Counted from the stretch's first letter, positions 3,702 to 56,791 are shown. The stretch is 64,000 bases of DNA from Candidatus Saccharimonadota bacterium (GCA_036826375.1 DAISWL010000002.1:107499-171498); one strand, 5' to 3'. The notes: generated by a model not told the origin, from the letters alone. Translations and numbers: made by a program.

Positions 3702-3790
3702 ATGTTCAGGCATACTCTACTAACCATTGTATAAGATTACGCTTTTTTGCGATATAGCCTAAATTAATAATTAGATGATTAAGCTTAAGT
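3702..3790. repeat. 89-bp direct repeat, copy 2 (overlaps the last codon and stop of miaA)
   Basis: Identical to 2416-2504. Its last 6 nt are the ACT-TAA end of miaA read on the minus strand. Confidence 0.95.
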
Positions 3791-4585
3791 CATCTCAATA
3801 ACTTCAGCGTAATCCCACCTACGAAACCAAGTATCCTGACGCTTGGCGAACTGATAAATCTTGAACTTAAGCTTAGTGATAGTCTCATCAAGGTTTGGGT
3901 TAGAATCTAGTAGGTACTCGGTTAAGTATCTATACTCCAGACCTAGTGATATTAACCACTGTGGATCGACTCCACTCTTTATTAAGCCTTGAACTTCTTC
4001 TAGCATCCCCTCTTCCATCCGCTGATCCACTCTGGTGGAAATCCGCTGGCGCAAAACTTCTCTTGGCCAATTAAGTAAGTAGACCTTAAACTTAGGATTA
4101 TATCCAACCTTAAGCTTAGAGCTACTCCCCTCTCTTTCAGAGGGAAGGCTACTCAAGCTGCTCCCCTCTCCAGCTGAAGAGGGGCTGGGGGTGAGGTTTC
4201 TGTTCTCGCCAAACCTATACCCTTCAACCACACTTTCAATATAAAGCCCCGTTCCACCGCAAATTATCGGAACTTTTCCTCGAGCTTGAATATCTTTTAT
4301 TAAGTTTAAGGTTTGATTTTGAAACTGCGCCACGCTATACTTTTGACCGGGATCCAAAACATCTATCAGGTGATGCGGAACTCCGCACATTTCGGATTCG
4401 TTAACTTTGGCCGAGCCGATATCTAAGCCACGATAAACTTGGCGGGAATCCGCCGAGATGACCTCGCCATTAAGCTTAAGTGCTATTTGAATTGAAAGCG
4501 CTGTTTTACCGCTGGCGGTGGGTCCGGCAATCACAATAACTTCATCGGCTTGAGGGGGGTTAATCTGGTTTAATAAGTTTTTCAT
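3785..4585 (-). CDS. miaA: tRNA dimethylallyltransferase
   Basis: P-loop AGPTASGKTALS, then ISADSRQVYRGLDIGSAK and PHHLID. It carries an extra low-complexity segment NLTPSPSSAGEGSSLSSLPSEREGSS encoded by the hairpin repeat. Confidence 0.9.
   Translation of the reverse strand: MKNLLNQINPPQADEVIVIAGPTASGKTALSIQIALKLNGEVISADSRQVYRGLDIGSAKVNESEMCGVPHHLIDVLDPGQKYSVAQFQNQTLNLIKDIQARGKVPIICGGTGLYIESVVEGYRFGENRNLTPSPSSAGEGSSLSSLPSEREGSSSKLKVGYNPKFKVYLLNWPREVLRQRISTRVDQRMEEGMLEEVQGLIKSGVDPQWLISLGLEYRYLTEYLLDSNPNLDETITKLKFKIYQFAKRQDTWFRRWDYAEVIEMT
4127..4198. repeat. In-frame hairpin repeat element inside miaA (two hairpins plus a GGGGTGAGG tail)
   Basis: CCCCTCTCTTTCAGAGGGAAGG, then 13 nt, then CCCCTCTCCAGCTGAAGAGGGGCTGGGGGTGAGGTT. 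It belongs to the same family as 38169-38204, 55329-55363, 56233-56288 and 55811-55867. Confidence 0.85.
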
Positions 4586-36665: not shown

Positions 36666-38723
<2,058 letters not shown>

Positions 38724-53206: not shown

Positions 53207-56200
53207 TTATTTATTCATACTTTTGTCAAATTGATCAATTGCAGCGCTGATTACTTGGTTAATCTCTGCTAAAGTTAAAGTTCGTTCGGTACTGCTAAAT
53301 TCTATTGAAAAAGTAATTTTTTTTGTTGAAGATTTCGCATCCGCCTGATAAATCGATACCGGCTTTAGGCTAAATTTAAGATCATATTCGGATATAATTT
53401 TTTCAAGCTTATGTTGCACTGTACTCAAAATTGAACGGGCTGGAACCTCTAAGGTGATATCTTGATGCACACTCGGAAACTTTGAAAGAGGTTGGTAGGC
53501 TGCATCTGTATTGAATAAATCTGCTAGCCCGTGGAGGTCAATCTCGAAACCAGCACTTGCTGCAGGCAACTTAAGTTTAAGCGCAGTTGATGAATTAATT
53601 GTACCGATGATCCCCGAAGGTTTTTCATCTATAAAAATAGTTGCGCTGTTAATGTGGCTGAACGGAGCTGTCACCGGAATTTTATCTCCAAAAAATTCGG
53701 CATCTGTTCTAACTAAACTGAACTTAATGTTGAGGTGTGCTAGCAACTGTTTCAAATAGAGCCCAGCCTGGTGATAAGCATCTTCGGCTGAACCATTTTT
53801 GTTGGCAACCACTAAACTTAAGCGGGCGAATTCCGCTGGAACTTGATCATCATGGGCATCTAGATGCCCCCGAACGTGGACCTTACCAATTTCAAACAGG
53901 CAGAATTGATCGAATCCATCTTTAATATTTTTATGGATTTGGTTGAGTAACGACGGCGTTAAACTTAAGCGATAATATTGTAAATCTGGGCTGAGGGCAT
54001 TGCGGATTTTGAACGCCAACTCTTCATTTTGATTAGCGGCATCAAGTAACTTGCCATGCACAAAACTATAATTAAGAGTTTCGTTGGCTCCAAGCTTGGC
54101 TAGATAACTTCTGATTTCCCGCTTAAGCTTAATGTTTTGATTAGTGTAAGCCGGTTCAATTTGCCTAACCTGCAACTGAGATGGAATTTGGTTAAAGCCG
54201 TGGATTCGGCCCACCTCTTCAATAATATCTTCTTCAATTTCAAGATCAGTTCTCCAGAATGGAATTGTGACTTCTAGCTGATCTTCTGAGATTATTTGGT
54301 TAAGTACGACTCTATTCCTATTTAAGTTGCTGCCGAAATGCTCAAGGCCATCATATTTAACCAGGCTACCATTAAGCATTTTAACGTTATATTCTCCATC
54401 GCTAAAAGGCACGAAATCATCGTCCGTTGAGTGTATTTGCACGAATGTATTAGATTGCTTACTTATTTTATTATAATTAAGTTTAGTTTGATAGAAACTA
54501 TTAAGTTTATCTTCTTCATTTCTAGGCTTGTCACTATTAGCGGCAACAAGAATGACTCTGTCTACAATCTGATCATACTGATTTAAATAATGTAACACCG
54601 CTAAGCCACCCTTAGAATGCCCCACTATAACCGTATCCTGATCGGGTTTAAGTTTAGATATAACTTCAACCCACTCGGAGAGGATTGGGTCGTTAAAGCT
54701 TGGCATATCTGGACAAATAAATTCTATACCCTTACTGTATAATTGCTCTCCTAGCCATGGATACCAGTAGCTTTGAGAATTCTTGTCTTGGCCGTGAATC
54801 AGAATAACTCTTTTAGCTTGTTTTCTATTAGCTTGAATTTCCACCCGCTCTAAAATCTCTTGAACTTCTTCAATTTTAAAGTTAGAACCAAGCACATTGT
54901 TTAGATTTTCTAAGCTTAAATGTAGAGTTTTGGCGGATTGGGATTTGACACCCTCACTTAAACTTAAGCCAATTTTTCCGTGAGCTAGGCTTTTATATTC
55001 ATCGGCAGTTTTGGCGGCGATGGCATCTATTTGAGCCGTTGGTTGACCCTTGGTGTAGCGAGTTACGGCATCGGTGAATAGACCGTGGCGCATACTGGTT
55101 CGGCGCACCGCGTACATATCGAAAGTGGCGGTTTCTAGCAAAATATTTTTAGTATTCTCATCAACTTCAGTTTCTTTGCCGCCCATTACTCCAGCAAGTG
55201 CAATCGCTTTATTTGGAGTAGCAATCACTACATCGGCAGAATTAAGCTTAATAGTTTTTCCGTTTAAAAGAGCTAGCTCTTCGCCCTCTTCGGCCTGGCG
55301 AACAATAATTTCCACCTCATTATTGCCACCCTCTCCATCTGGAGAGGGGCTGGGGGTGAGGTTTGATCCGCAAAGCTTTTTAAGCTTATCTAAATCGAAA
55401 GCGTGTTGAGGCTGAGCAGTTAAAATCATCATGTAGTTAGTAATATCTACCAGATTATTAATTGGCGTCATGCCTAAATTACGAAAAGTTGTTTGCATCC
55501 AACTTGGGGAATCCGCGACTTGAACATCTTCAATAATTGTAGCTCGATATTTGGTGCAAGCTTTAGAATTGACGGTAACCTTAAGCTTAGTATCTCTATT
55601 TTCTGACGGGGATCCTGAATCAAGTTCAGGATGACTATTTTTGAGGTACCAATTTGGGGATTTAAACTTCAAGCCTTGAATTGCAGCAATCTCTCTGGCA
55701 ATTCCAAGATGTCCAAAACAATCTGGGCGATGGGTGAACATTTTGTTTTCAAAATCAGCAATAACATCATTAAGCTCTAAAACTTGAGAGAGAAGATCGC
55801 CGGGTTTAATAGCCTCACCCTGGCTGGATCGAAGATCCAACCTGTCCCTCTCCTGAAGAGAGAGGGATTTAATTGTAACCTTAATTTGGGACAAAACGTC
55901 ATTCAAATTTTGTTCAATCTGCTGATTAGTGAAGCGTAAAATTGTGGACCCATTGGCCTCTAGATCTTCAGTTCTAACCTCATCGAGAGCTTGCTGGTCT
56001 GCAGAATTATGATAGCCACCATCAACTTCGATAATTAAGTTTAACTCAACCGCAAAAAAATCGGCGATATAATAACCAATTGCATGCTGTCTTCTGAACT
56101 TAACTCCTAATTTAGAAGCTCTGAGATGTTGCCACAGCGCCTCTTCAGCTTTAGTTGATTGCTTTCTATTTTCTCTGGAACGATTTTTAAGCTCTCCCCA

Positions 56201-56791
56201 CATACCAGGTTCTGATGAACTCAGAACGCTAGCCCCCTCTCCATTCAGGAGAGGGGCAGATTGGCGGAAGCCAGTCGGGGTGAGGCTTAACCCTAAATAC
56301 TCTCTAACATCCAAAATTCCACTATGATCATCGCCAAGGCCTAGCTCTTTTGCGCTAGCCAACATACCGTTAGAGGTTTGACCCCTAAGCTTAATGGTGG
56401 CGAGTTTGAAGGGTTCGGAATCTTTAGCGGTAGAAGGCACAATTGCACCAGGGGATATCCACGCCACAAACATGCCGGGCTTAACGTTTGGAGCTCCACA
56501 CACAACTTGAACGAGGCCGTTTTGATCACGAGCTAAACCGAGAGCTGCTTCGCCATCATCAATTTTTACAATTTTGAGTTTATCGGCATCCGGGTGGGGA
56601 TGCACCTCTTTCACTTCGGCCACAAAGATGCCCTCAAAAGCAGTTCCCAAATGTTCGATGCCTTCCAGCGCCCCAATTTGGGAATTGAGCTTTTCGGTTA
56701 GTTCTTCCGGGCTTAAGCTTAACAAACCATTAAGCTCTGGCCCGCCATACTTTTTGGAGTAGTAATTTCCTAAATTAAAAGAATACTTCAT
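53207..56791 (-). CDS. pheT: Phenylalanine--tRNA ligase beta subunit carrying three in-frame insertions
   Basis: N-terminal tRNA-binding OB domain (VVCGAPNV), B3_4 (THRPDCFGHLGIAREIAA), B5 (VTIPFWRTDLEIEEDIIEEVGRIHGF), FDX-ACB C-terminus. 1194 aa against roughly 800 typical. Confidence 0.9.
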   Translation of the reverse strand: MKYSFNLGNYYSKKYGGPELNGLLSLSPEELTEKLNSQIGALEGIEHLGTAFEGIFVAEVKEVHPHPDADKLKIVKIDDGEAALGLARDQNGLVQVVCGAPNVKPGMFVAWISPGAIVPSTAKDSEPFKLATIKLRGQTSNGMLASAKELGLGDDHSGILDVREYLGLSLTPTGFRQSAPLLNGEGASVLSSSEPGMWGELKNRSRENRKQSTKAEEALWQHLRASKLGVKFRRQHAIGYYIADFFAVELNLIIEVDGGYHNSADQQALDEVRTEDLEANGSTILRFTNQQIEQNLNDVLSQIKVTIKSLSLQERDRLDLRSSQGEAIKPGDLLSQVLELNDVIADFENKMFTHRPDCFGHLGIAREIAAIQGLKFKSPNWYLKNSHPELDSGSPSENRDTKLKVTVNSKACTKYRATIIEDVQVADSPSWMQTTFRNLGMTPINNLVDITNYMMILTAQPQHAFDLDKLKKLCGSNLTPSPSPDGEGGNNEVEIIVRQAEEGEELALLNGKTIKLNSADVVIATPNKAIALAGVMGGKETEVDENTKNILLETATFDMYAVRRTSMRHGLFTDAVTRYTKGQPTAQIDAIAAKTADEYKSLAHGKIGLSLSEGVKSQSAKTLHLSLENLNNVLGSNFKIEEVQEILERVEIQANRKQAKRVILIHGQDKNSQSYWYPWLGEQLYSKGIEFICPDMPSFNDPILSEWVEVISKLKPDQDTVIVGHSKGGLAVLHYLNQYDQIVDRVILVAANSDKPRNEEDKLNSFYQTKLNYNKISKQSNTFVQIHSTDDDFVPFSDGEYNVKMLNGSLVKYDGLEHFGSNLNRNRVVLNQIISEDQLEVTIPFWRTDLEIEEDIIEEVGRIHGFNQIPSQLQVRQIEPAYTNQNIKLKREIRSYLAKLGANETLNYSFVHGKLLDAANQNEELAFKIRNALSPDLQYYRLSLTPSLLNQIHKNIKDGFDQFCLFEIGKVHVRGHLDAHDDQVPAEFARLSLVVANKNGSAEDAYHQAGLYLKQLLAHLNIKFSLVRTDAEFFGDKIPVTAPFSHINSATIFIDEKPSGIIGTINSSTALKLKLPAASAGFEIDLHGLADLFNTDAAYQPLSKFPSVHQDITLEVPARSILSTVQHKLEKIISEYDLKFSLKPVSIYQADAKSSTKKITFSIEFSSTERTLTLAEINQVISAAIDQFDKSMNK
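54284..54829 (-). other. In-frame alpha/beta serine hydrolase domain (RBBP9/YdeN, PF06821-like) inserted in the B5 region of PheT
   Basis: VILIHG...YWYPWL...VGHSKGG (GxSxG)...IHSTDDDFVP (Asp)...GLEHF (His), i.e. PheT aa 655-836. Confidence 0.75.
55329..55363. repeat. In-frame hairpin repeat element inside the pheT B3_4 region
   Basis: CCCTCTCCATCTGGAGAGGGGCTGGGGGTGAGGTT, translated as NLTPSPSPDGEGG. Confidence 0.85.
55811..56288 (-). mobile_element. DUF559 (Vsr-like endonuclease) module bounded by about 56-bp imperfect terminal inverted repeats, inserted in frame in pheT
   Basis: PheT aa 169-327 include AEEALWQHLRASKLGVKFRRQHAIGYYIADFFAVELNLIIEVDGGYH...LEANGSTILRFTNQQI (DUF559 pattern). 56233-56288 and the reverse complement of 55811-55867 align (CCCTCTC..TTCAGGAGAGGG.CAG.TTGG...CCAG..GGGTGAGGCT). 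Confidence 0.8.

Follow-up and report, generated by a model that had tools for sequence, protein, structure and literature searches.

RNA splicing takes introns out of a transcript, and protein splicing takes inteins out of a protein. The Rickettsia palindromic elements (RPEs), which Ogata et al. are said to have described in 2000, reportedly sit in frame in coding genes; they are not known outside the Rickettsia lineage, nor to encode a protein, and measure 100-150 bp. The Vsr-like homing endonucleases of the I-Bth0305I family, in the parts of their description drawn on here (Dassa et al. 2009, PMC2677866), occupy group I introns or the space between the two halves of a split intein; each is a separate ORF that has a start and a stop codon of its own, and they carry extra DNA-binding modules. 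The BoxC/PIT/TM repeats (Holder et al. 2015, PMC4666352; TMECO in E. coli) are present in 23 copies in E. coli, where they are reportedly always intergenic and a cause of local instability, and where no linked mobility gene was found nearby; such repeats can thus be maintained, or spread, with no nuclease linked to them. The whalefall-1 family (RF01762; Weinberg et al. 2010, PMC2864571) was proposed to be a free-standing non-coding RNA, with a whale-fall metagenome as its only known source.

An in-frame nuclease block in pheT

The window (the whole stretch of 64,000 nt analysed here) contains the pheT gene of Candidatus Saccharibacteria (PheRS beta subunit; 53207..56791, (-), an ORF of 1194 aa), in which Pfam recognizes the tRNA_bind, B3_4, B5, tRNA_synthFbeta and FDX-ACB domains; the neighbouring ORFs encode a glycosidase, an aldehyde dehydrogenase, a ferric reductase and NusA. 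An identical protein (P0001, source name Candidatus Saccharibacteria) occurs on nine contigs that come from several sources, so that an assembly artefact is unlikely. The linker between tRNA_bind (B2) and B3_4 holds a codon-aligned block of 477 nt (55811..56287, (-), 159 codons, PheT aa 169-327), with AGCCTCACC at one tip and GGTGAGGCT at the other. The initial annotation, made from the sequence alone, had read it as a stop-free DUF559 module inserted in frame in pheT: the ORF and the Pfam match bear this out, and of its coordinates the start and the 477-nt length were right while the end, 56288, lay one base too far. Alignment with orthologues shows the block to be extra relative to close orthologues, and the junction left by its deletion (..DVREYLGL|IKPGDLL..), which had been taken for the ordinary linker, indeed matches block-free orthologues, e.g. 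P0004 (..DLQQYNPQAIFKPGQLL..). The nuclease ORF has neither a start codon nor a stop codon of its own; the chance of meeting no stop over 159 codons, computed from composition, is 3e-5.

The core of the block (55871..56191, (-), PheT aa 201-307) is a DUF559 (Vsr-like PD-(D/E)xK) nuclease. As first proposed, the domain is complete: it matches Pfam PF04480 over profile positions 3-108 of 109 with a highly significant E of 2.5e-30, and its 105 bits compare with a cut-off of 20.6. The conserved family residues looked for were W, RRQH, DF, IExDG..H, D..R and F, and all 18 residues that are invariant in a 24-sequence alignment of DUF559 are kept. In sequence the nuclease matches PDB 3HRL (E 8e-22), described merely as a putative endonuclease-like protein. 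Its structure model has a mean pLDDT of 84 (~90 or more over most of the core), and Foldseek places 3HRL first (TM 0.89), followed by both chains of the I-Bth0305I homing endonuclease 3R3P (E 3.6e-4, probability 1.0); sequence similarity of the module to the I-Bth0305I family was not detectable. We know of no biochemical characterization of a bacterial DUF559 protein, and literature searches returned none.

The block is distributed irregularly among PheT orthologues. It is found in proteins 94% and 59% identical to that of the window and is missing at 72-76% identity; on the host tree it occupies P0001/P0002 and the outgroup P0007, and is absent from P0004, P0005 and the clade P0003/P0008/P0009/P0010/P0011. 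In P0007 (59% identity) the segment is accompanied by flanking inverted repeats, so that even this distant orthologue does not carry the nuclease alone. The proposed search for empty sites in relatives yielded several block-free orthologues, one of which (L006) reads GGCCTCA-ATCAAAAT-CAGGGTGAGGCC (LGLNQNQGEA) at the site: both arm tips survive as a deletion footprint. The frame is open in three diverged versions, the window and L001 modules having 159 codons each. Against the 94%-identical orthologue, dN/dS of the nuclease core is 0.14 (12 synonymous and seven non-synonymous changes), omega of the host PheT N-terminal domain is 0.12, and the arms have a lower dS (0.07), with just one synonymous change per arm. 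By these substitution counts the nuclease is under purifying selection. Between the window and L004, identity is 65% for the module and 59% for the host; since the two are about equally diverged, an old insertion that was lost several times is just as likely as recent homing, and one ancient insertion followed by four or five losses would fit the distribution as well as repeated homing. The distal repeat of L004 is of the short form and stands ~10 host-like codons from the nuclease, and for these reasons may be an independent solo insertion.

Sporadic in-frame modules of other kinds, without repeats, also occur in the PheT proteins of this clade: a Ser_hydrolase in B5 and a module of ~150 aa.

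Inverted arms and the triplex motif

The block ends in two inverted arms of about 56-57 nt, with a G+C content of 54-62% versus ~40% in the rest of pheT. The arm on the N-terminal side (56233..56287, (+)) is a long triplex motif encoding SLTPTGFRQSAPLLNGEG and comprises, on the plus strand, hairpin 1 (CCCCCTCTCC/GGAGAGGGG), hairpin 2 (GATTGGC-GGAA-GCCAGTC) and a third strand (GGGGTGAGG). Its counterpart on the C-terminal side (55811..55867, (-)), also a long triplex motif, encodes SLSLQERDRLDLRSSQGEA and has, on the minus strand, hairpin 1 (TCCCTCTC/GAGAGGGA), hairpin 2 (GGTTGGATC-TTC-GATCCAGCC) and third strand AGGGTGAGG. Folded as DNA, the N-side arm gives two hairpins (z -3.1) and the C-side arm has a z of -3.5; residues 1-21, encoded by the N-side arm, have an AlphaFold pLDDT below 50. 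A repeat search aligned the arms over 30 nt (at 87%) and 17 nt (at 88%), both blocks being gapless, and a gapped alignment (47 of 66 columns identical) scored 68, whereas 3000 random window pairs averaged 19.7 (sd 6.1) and reached 45 at most. The inverted copies of roughly 56 bp noted at the outset are therefore real, and they are inverted terminal repeats, as had been said; they are not private to the element, being copies of a known dispersed repeat.

The definition and identity of that repeat are taken from PMC4666352: a pyrimidine/purine hairpin is followed by a third strand which obeys G*G-C and A/T*A-T and runs antiparallel to the purine arm. Both arms and a solo copy in pheT follow this code, and two solo copies, in ligA and miaA, are slightly degenerate. 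The pattern GGAGAGGG-N(1-30)-GGGTGAGG occurs three times in the window and in none of 100 shuffles; a perfect third strand lies within 36 nt of 71 out of 160 pyrimidine/purine hairpins, versus 1/160 after shuffling; and third strands covary with their stems (GGAGAGGG with GGGTGAGG, GGGGAGGG with GGGTGGGG, GGAGAAGG with GGATGAGG). Within the block, the differences between the two hairpins 2 are compensated changes, and the outermost triplet, read from the sequence, is T-A*A in the C-side arm versus C-G*G in the N-side arm. As judged from pairing code and layout, the arms are long, two-hairpin, whalefall-1-like versions of the BoxC/PIT/TM intrastrand-triplex repeat, triplex formation itself having been demonstrated in vitro for E. 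coli sequences only (PMC4666352). Full-length matches to the Rfam whalefall-1 model were obtained for the N-side arm (17.3 bits), the C-side arm (27.1 bits, E 6e-5) and an arm of L004 (31.4 bits); all lie below the gathering score of 37 bits, and the arms thus resemble whalefall-1 without being certified members.

The solo copies are themselves in frame. The one in the B3_4 domain of pheT (55329..55361, (+), peptide NLTPSPSPDGEGG) corresponds to an insertion of 39 nt (13 codons) that L001, L002, L008 and L091 share and that is absent from L004, L006, L007 and L009. A slightly degenerate copy (38169..38202, (+)) lies in ligA (36666-38717, -), and the L007 LigA, 79% identical, is without the corresponding 14 residues. 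The third (4163..4196, (+), peptide NLTPSPSSAGEGS) lies in miaA (3785-4585, -), with a degenerate hairpin just upstream (~4128-4150); the L006 miaA has a long-form motif at the same site.

Several known classes of insertion were considered. Pfam finds no intein/Hint family in PheT (E<=0.01), and the junction residues (S...A|I) do not suit an intein: the last residues of the insert are ..QGEA, the next one is Ile, and both His-Asn and a Cys/Ser/Thr +1 nucleophile are missing. Group I and group II introns were rejected, as no Rfam intron family is found at gathering threshold, nor at E<=1 over 55600-56500, and three diverged copies all remain in frame. On both counts the initial annotation, which saw no intein or intron hallmarks, agrees with the searches. 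An IS element or MITE mobilized by a transposase shares the terminal inverted repeats, but there is no consistent target-site duplication and no cognate transposase, the sole ORF of the block being the Vsr-like nuclease.

It is very improbable that mature PheT nevertheless lacks the segment because a cryptic intron, splicing of an intein-like kind or a translational bypass removes it. Base pairing between the arms in the mRNA could draw the junctions close, and the arms resemble an RNA entry of Rfam; but the missing intein and intron families and splice-junction residues, the open frame of the three versions, the 3e-5 chance of a stop-free run of 159 codons, and the position of internal insertions in inter-domain linkers rather than conserved motifs all speak against removal, and RNA does not form purine-motif triplexes (PMC4666352). 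Still less probable is a programmed inversion switch, in which recombination between the inverted repeats would turn the DUF559 segment round and so switch the host gene on and off. The entry 'DUF559 domain-containing protein' is 14-fold enriched among predicted programmed-inversion targets (PMC9881135), an enrichment that flanking inverted repeats alone would produce; a flipped segment would break the pheT coding sequence, and no recombinase is encoded by the neighbouring ORFs.

Repeat-flanked DUF559 genes in other phyla

Further copies, whose search had been suggested, were looked for in 80 species-representative genomes from other phyla. A triplex motif lies within 300 bp of DUF559 at 66 loci; 47 have it on both sides, and in 46 of these the motifs are inverted with tails outward. 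Motif density is 1.76 per kb near the DUF559 gene versus 0.11 per kb further off, a 16-fold enrichment. In E. coli K-12, the DUF559 gene examined, ycjD, is followed at ~170 bp by a TM copy. DUF559 is part of an open frame above 250 aa at 51 of the 80 loci, a fraction inflated by the choice of loci as nearest relatives of an embedded copy; among the best 150 of 21,845 homologous protein clusters (E<=0.001) about 31% exceed 250 aa. About 20 host gene families contain the in-frame repeat-nuclease-repeat arrangement, and free-standing copies exist too. The hosts include LeuRS (18 loci, two sites), RecG (7), IleRS, UvrA, MetH, IcmF, Lhr, acetyl-CoA synthetase and others, and internal copies whose position was checked lie in inter-domain linkers, outside conserved motifs. 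With this recurrence in housekeeping genes of other phyla, the case is not peculiar to pheT.

The unit is rather constant: 434-580 bp in 18 of the 19 copies measured (800 bp in the remaining one), and in every case the ORF shares the reading phase of the left arm. The flanks of 19 tip-to-tip copies show no consistent direct repeat (target-site duplication), and the sample contained no near-identical copies at different loci; both results weigh against a mobile cassette. For 34 of 37 embedded copies the closest DUF559 relative is in the same host family. The LeuRS copies nevertheless spread over at least five clades, and shared sites are occupied in PheT and, by several DUF559 clades, at the two LeuRS positions. 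Both LeuRS sites are seen empty, with a solo repeat, and full; site A was additionally found with a repeat pair without DUF559.

Two other explanations have to be weighed against these data. In the first, the module derives from an old fusion and is now a lineage-specific domain, domesticated or neutral, that serves the host or is tolerated by it, and the repeats are unrelated G/C-rich sequences that accumulate in linkers. The similar divergence of module and host is in keeping with it, purifying selection would fit a host function too, and PheT of this clade does take up repeat-free modules. We consider it unlikely, since no single host function fits about 20 unrelated host families plus free-standing copies with the same nuclease and inverted repeats, and since the module is missing from 72-76%-identical orthologues, one allele has a footprint, and the repeats are inverted with tails outward at all but one of the two-sided loci. 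In the second, equally doubtful, the triplex repeats drive the association, DUF559 being a captured passenger or a host enzyme that resolves such structures. TM repeats are indeed tied to rearranged loci with no transposase or integrase nearby (PMC4666352), nuclease-free solo repeats lie in frame in ligA, miaA, B3_4 and both LeuRS sites, and in E. coli ycjD adjoins just one of the 23 TM copies. Chance capture, on the other hand, would yield neither a unit of constant size with its ORF in phase with the left arm nor a 16-fold enrichment specific to the DUF559 family.

A candidate cassette and its relation to known systems

From the above, we consider that the block is probably a selfish DNA cassette, consisting of a DUF559 ORF without start or stop between inverted triplex repeats, and read through as part of pheT. 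The cassette would have landed in a permissive linker of PheT, between tRNA_bind (B2) and B3_4, and would be transcribed and translated straight through, so that PheT gains an extra folded nuclease domain tethered by two repeat-encoded segments; as the cell would tolerate this domain, the essential gene would shelter the element. The mobility of the cassette and the target of its nuclease are matters of inference. The nuclease is presumably active; spread could begin with a nick or cut at a site that is unoccupied, at a solo or paired repeat, or close to either, after which host recombination repair would copy the cassette in, in a homing-like manner, the repeats serving as recognition or homology ends. 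Solo repeats may be non-autonomous relatives or remnants, and loss may proceed by palindrome-stimulated deletion.

A broader proposal, for which we would put the chances somewhat below even, is that DUF559 nucleases and BoxC/PIT/TM (whalefall-1-like) repeats form an unrecognized cross-phylum class of mobile elements, with repeat-nuclease-repeat as the autonomous form and solo or paired repeats as non-autonomous ones, colonizing coding genes by read-through without splicing. In the literature searched, neither a connection between DUF559 and these repeats nor a description of such a class was found. If true, it would offer nuclease-encoding selfish elements a third way of living inside essential bacterial genes, by staying in the protein at a tolerated linker, and a single explanation would cover three orphans: DUF559, a very large family (about 22,000 protein clusters), would have a testable function; the BoxC/PIT/TM triplex repeats would have a candidate agent of their origin and spread; and the whalefall-1 'RNA' would seem to be a DNA repeat and not an RNA gene. 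In practice, embedded copies distort annotation, as with a 130-aa DUF559 protein that its source calls 'MetH/leucyl-tRNA synthetase/ATP-dependent D[NA helicase]'; they make housekeeping proteins of Patescibacteria and Bacteroidota look larger than they are, and they mark permissive insertion sites in aminoacyl-tRNA synthetases and repair enzymes.

Compared with described systems, the arms share with BoxC/PIT/TM the architecture CCCTCTCC-loop-GGAGAGGG, short linker and GGGGTGAGG as purine-motif third strand, obey the same pairing code, and likewise occur as dispersed copies in many phyla, with pairs often inverted (PMC4666352); they differ from the E. coli TM repeats in being in frame within genes, in bracketing a nuclease ORF and in having an extra hairpin in the linker. 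With whalefall-1 (PMC2864571), to whose full 56-position model the two window arms and the L004 arm align, they have in common the order hairpin 1, ACAGA, hairpin 2, then UCAGGGUGAGG; as the arm copies lie on opposite strands of one ORF, a DNA repeat fits better than an RNA gene. The I-Bth0305I family has the same fold and also consists of selfish nuclease genes that enter conserved housekeeping genes, with no flanking triplex repeats in the parts of its description drawn on here (PMC2677866). RPEs and MITEs resemble the solo motifs of ligA, miaA and pheT in being short palindromes that lie in frame within essential genes, where they are tolerated as an extra peptide, but the cassette has an autonomous-looking form with a nuclease, and its repeat is common to several phyla. 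Inteins, finally, are nuclease-bearing selfish elements in frame in essential genes, including those for aminoacyl-tRNA synthetases and DNA repair enzymes; unlike them, the cassette has no Hint domain and no splice residues, it sits in linkers rather than catalytic motifs, and it apparently stays in the protein.

The DUF559 cassette of pheT

The pheT gene of the window, which encodes the β subunit of PheRS, is one long ORF (53207-56791, minus strand, 1194 aa) where Pfam recognized the tRNA_bind (aa 56-162), B3_4 (aa 411-591), B5, tRNA_synthFbeta and FDX-ACB domains, plus two foreign ones: DUF559 at aa 201-307 (E 2.5e-30, profile positions 3-108 of 109) and Ser_hydrolase at aa 663-819, within B5. 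The DUF559 domain belongs to a cassette (55811-56287, minus strand, PheT aa 169-327) of exactly 477 nt, the first of which opens a codon; it extends from AGCCTCACC to GGTGAGGCT. The initial annotation had placed a nuclease module with terminal inverted repeats at 55811-56288; the in-frame block and its inverted ends were confirmed, but the end coordinate was one base too far. The two ends, or arms, are inverted copies of each other, with gapless blocks of 30 nt (87%) and 17 nt (88%); 47 of the 66 columns of a gapped alignment are identical, a score about 8 sd above that of random pairs from the window. Their G+C content is high (54-62% versus 39% for the genome), and the window contains the core arm pattern three times, against 0 times in 100 shuffles of its sequence. 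None of the three cassette versions compared contains a stop codon, and the internal start is not conserved (Met196 is Ile in L001, the locus of a PheT relative). The cassette is an in-frame, stop-free and codon-aligned nuclease block set between inverted triplex repeats. An intein or an intron was rejected: there was no Pfam Hint family, no Rfam intron match, and the junction residues were wrong. The open frame of embedded cassettes is no proof of translation. Post-transcriptional or post-translational removal of the segment is a very unlikely alternative to a translated insert.

All 18 residues found to be invariant in the family alignment are kept in the cassette nuclease; the D of DF and the E or D of IEVDG are presumed to be catalytic. 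Its core differs from that of L001 by 12 synonymous and 7 non-synonymous changes (omega 0.14), a value similar to that of the flanking host domain (0.12); synonymous divergence was lower in the arms, where counts are very small. The nuclease is thus conserved at the protein level. Domestication of the domain by its host is a less likely reading than that of a mobile cassette. The closest solved sequence is 3HRL, an uncharacterized 'endonuclease-like protein' from Neisseria (E 8e-22). AlphaFold modelled the core of the 160-aa block confidently, most of it at a pLDDT of about 90 or higher, and left the N-terminal arm disordered (pLDDT below 50 for residues 1-21); Foldseek ranked 3HRL first (TM 0.89), then the homing endonuclease I-Bth0305I (catalytic domain, E 3.6e-4), followed by the nuclease domains of AbaSI/PvuRts1I and by Vsr. 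The nuclease looks functional. Several proteins of the mitoribosomal large subunit in Toxoplasma and Tetrahymena (9i05_Xl, 9i05_Xv and 6z1p_AS) also matched the model with a probability of 1.0; organellar ribosomes appear to have co-opted the fold.

The distribution of the cassette was followed in 16 aligned PheT orthologues, with a distance tree and codon-level views of the fetched loci. The identical PheT was found on 9 contigs, under the source name Candidatus Saccharibacteria; these contigs come from several sources and related filled alleles exist in independent samples, which argues against an assembly artefact. P0002 (94% identity over shared columns) carries the cassette, as does P0007 (59%), the outgroup of the clade; P0004 (76%), P0005 (74%) and the clade formed by P0003, P0008, P0009, P0010 and P0011 (63-65%) lack it. 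L001 holds the same cassette, with arms 96.5% identical to those of the window. In L004, another PheT relative, the proximal arm is of the long form, with a second hairpin that differs in sequence yet is self-complementary, and the distal repeat is of the short form, about 10 host-like codons downstream. The nominally empty L006 (2001-4571, pheT of P0006) reads GGCCTCA-ATCAAAAT-CAGGGTGAGGCC at the site (LGLNQNQGEA, linker codons ~157-166): both arm tips remain, a footprint resembling a scar left when the cassette was imprecisely deleted. The cassette is thus patchy among relatives and leaves footprints. The nucleases of the window and L004 are mutually closest (65%, the next best being 57%), for a host identity of 59%. 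On these sequences, one old insertion followed by several losses and homing among orthologues are both possible histories.

Other modules were encountered in PheT. The Ser_hydrolase (alpha-beta hydrolase) domain, in frame inside B5 (54335-54805, minus strand), is sporadic: it is found in P0001 (identical to the window protein), P0003, P0013 and P0015, and is missing from P0008, P0009 and P0011, despite their 93-94% identity to P0003. A module of ~150 aa without Pfam match (..WKSY[IV]MG[IL]K..NKYAK..) follows KFKSPxWY in the pheT genes of L001 and L091; it takes the place of a 9-residue host loop in P0002, P0003 and P0010, and is found neither in near-identical relatives nor in the window. Use of the cassette's repeats by these two modules was ruled out, their junctions being devoid of the triplex motif. 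Within this clade, PheT seems to be a hotspot where in-frame modules can be swapped.

Arms and solo copies of the repeat

We identified the arms, from their sequence, as the G/C-rich intrastrand triplex motif of Holder et al. 2015 (PMC4666352), previously called BoxC and PIT. It has the form CCCTCTCC-loop-GGAGAGGG, then a short linker and GGGGTGAGG as purine-motif third strand; it makes a stable triplex in vitro and is present in more than 260 genomes (PMC4666352). The same identification holds for three solo short motifs, all in frame in minus-strand genes: in the B3_4 part of pheT (55329-55361, NLTPSPSPDGEGG), in ligA (38169-38202) and in miaA (4163-4196). All three are polymorphic as insertions. 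L001, L002, L008 and L091 have the 39-nt pheT copy, which is missing from L009, with a PheT 93% identical to that of L008; the ligA copy is absent from a 79%-identical orthologue; and the miaA of L006 has a long-form copy at the site of the window's solo motif.

To check the pairing code, a third strand was sought within 36 nt of 160 pyrimidine/purine hairpins, some taken from the window and others from the fetched loci: it was perfect for 71 of them, versus 1 after shuffling. Third strand and stem covary (GGAGAGGG with GGGTGAGG, GGGGAGGG with GGGTGGGG, GGAGAAGG with GGATGAGG), and the two arms of the window differ by a matched triplet change at the outermost position (C-G*G versus T-A*A). Long-form arms, which have a second hairpin in the linker, align over the full length of Rfam whalefall-1. 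This motif, whose function is unknown, comes from a whale-fall metagenome and was put forward as a non-coding RNA (PMC2864571). The alignment scores (27.1 and 17.3 bits for the window arms, 31.4 bits for L004) are all below the gathering threshold of 37. A DNA repeat is favoured over an RNA gene for three reasons: the copies lie on opposite strands of one ORF, the arm hairpins fold as DNA (z -3.1 and -3.5), and RNA does not form purine-motif triplexes (PMC4666352). The strict triplex pattern was found 4 times in the 64-kb window (6 with a looser one) and not at all in the relatives L007 (22.5 kb) and L009 (18 kb); repeat load thus seems to differ sharply between related Saccharibacteria.

The window is also rich in other short sequences. 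The palindrome TAAGCTTA, which recalls HIP1-type palindromes, occurs 69 times versus ~2 expected from base composition, most of the excess of this octamer being already present at the hexamer level; there are 105 AAGCTT versus ~21 expected, and 33 occurrences of TTAAGCTTAA.

Cassettes in other genomes

Among DUF559 proteins, the closest ones (identity of at most 57%) are encoded by free-standing ORFs of 120-140 aa; E. coli YcjD and N. gonorrhoeae NGO0050 are also free-standing relatives. Longer gene calls extend into flanks translating as PLPGEGA, NAPPLGGWGASVLNSS etc., and one fragment starts with a LeuRS motif. The source name of P0134, a 130-aa DUF559 protein, is '5-methyltetrahydrofolate--homocysteine methyltransferase/leucyl-tRNA synthetase/ATP-dependent D...', an annotation probably transferred from hosts of embedded copies. 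An exhaustive protein search with the module gave 21,845 representative clusters at E<=0.001, and ~31% of the best 150 exceed 250 aa; it recovered the PheT hosts, which a word-index search did not. Its second-best match, P0241 (377 aa), contains three separate DUF559-matching stretches and may be a tandem cassette array.

A scan of one genome per GTDB species provided 80 loci, mostly from Bacteroidota, with others from Chloroflexi, Pseudanabaena and Bdellovibrionota. Triplex motifs, counted with a generic definition, were within 300 bp of DUF559 at 66 of them, with a density of 1.76 per kb near the gene versus 0.11 per kb at greater distance. That the repeats drove the capture of a passenger gene is a less likely origin of such an association. 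Motifs stood on both sides at 47 loci, with tails pointing outward, as in the window, at all but one (46/47). An inversion switch is a very unlikely reading of this arrangement: among predicted inversion targets, DUF559 proteins show a 14-fold enrichment (PMC9881135), which flanking inverted repeats alone would yield. Tip-to-tip length was 434-580 bp in 18 of the 19 copies measured and 800 bp in the remaining one. The DUF559 match lay in an open frame of more than 250 aa at 51 of the 80 loci, a fraction biased upward since all these loci are those most closely related to an embedded copy. Cultured carriers among the loci include Pedobacter miscanthi (leuS), Flavobacterium difficile (recG) and Ilyomonas limi (leuS).

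Hosts, assigned by Pfam and clustering, were LeuRS (18 loci), RecG (7), guanylate kinase (3), IcmF-like mutase, HisF and UDP-GlcNAc 2-epimerase (2 each) and, as single cases, IleRS, UvrA, MetH, Lhr, an SF1 helicase, acetyl-CoA synthetase, CCA-adding enzyme, MazG, GDP-mannose dehydratase, DegT, PurD, TrpA and a DNA methylase, among others. Internal copies lie between host domains; a few 'N-terminal' cases may merely be upstream ORFs sharing the frame by chance. LeuRS has two sites, one before and one after the editing domain, which are empty, occupied by a solo motif or filled by a full cassette depending on the genome. In the LeuRS of a Chitinophagales MAG (L040, 162-3674), the site before the editing domain has the motif-derived peptides LTLSLSTSGEGVLTP and SLSAGGEGDTPL with no nuclease in between and may be a nuclease-less derivative; the same site holds a full cassette in eight other LeuRS, as does the second site of L040. 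In short, shallow trees based on ~100 columns, the nearest DUF559 relative was in the same host family for 34 of 37 embedded copies, and the LeuRS-embedded copies fell into at least five clades. The same anatomy exists across phyla, within linkers of many housekeeping genes. In E. coli K-12 (L090, NC_000913.3 1349500-1352500), TM copy number 9 lies ~170 bp downstream of the DUF559 gene ycjD; it is one of 23 published TMECO copies, for which no associated mobility function was reported (PMC4666352).

Mobility and relation to known systems

There was no consistent target-site duplication across 19 copies, and near-identical copies at different loci, as expected from recent bursts, were not found among species representatives. 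Carriage by phages was rejected, a relative being present in only 2 of 50,697 phage records (33-37% identity). In E. coli the triplex motif marks rearranged loci, and transposases or integrases were 'never found' nearby (PMC4666352). With neither transposase nor target-site duplication, a repair-based route fits better than cut-and-paste transposition. In such a route, the DUF559 nuclease, which is probably active, would introduce a nick or a break into an unoccupied site or into a solo or paired repeat, and repair by recombination would bring in a copy of the cassette, much as in homing, the repeats supplying recognition or homology. Insertions would survive only where they fall in a tolerated linker and preserve the frame of the host, and the cassette would be lost via palindrome-stimulated deletion.

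In-frame palindromic insertions are known in Rickettsia. The parts of the cassette are separately known: the DUF559 family, the BoxC/PIT/TM repeats, the whalefall-1 motif and Vsr-like homing endonucleases, the latter described in introns and fractured genes (PMC2677866). A search of the non-subscription literature revealed no paper joining DUF559 to triplex repeats or describing in-frame DUF559 cassettes. The cassette resembles a selfish nuclease element combined with MITE-like repeats, and there is a substantial chance that it merits the name of a new class.
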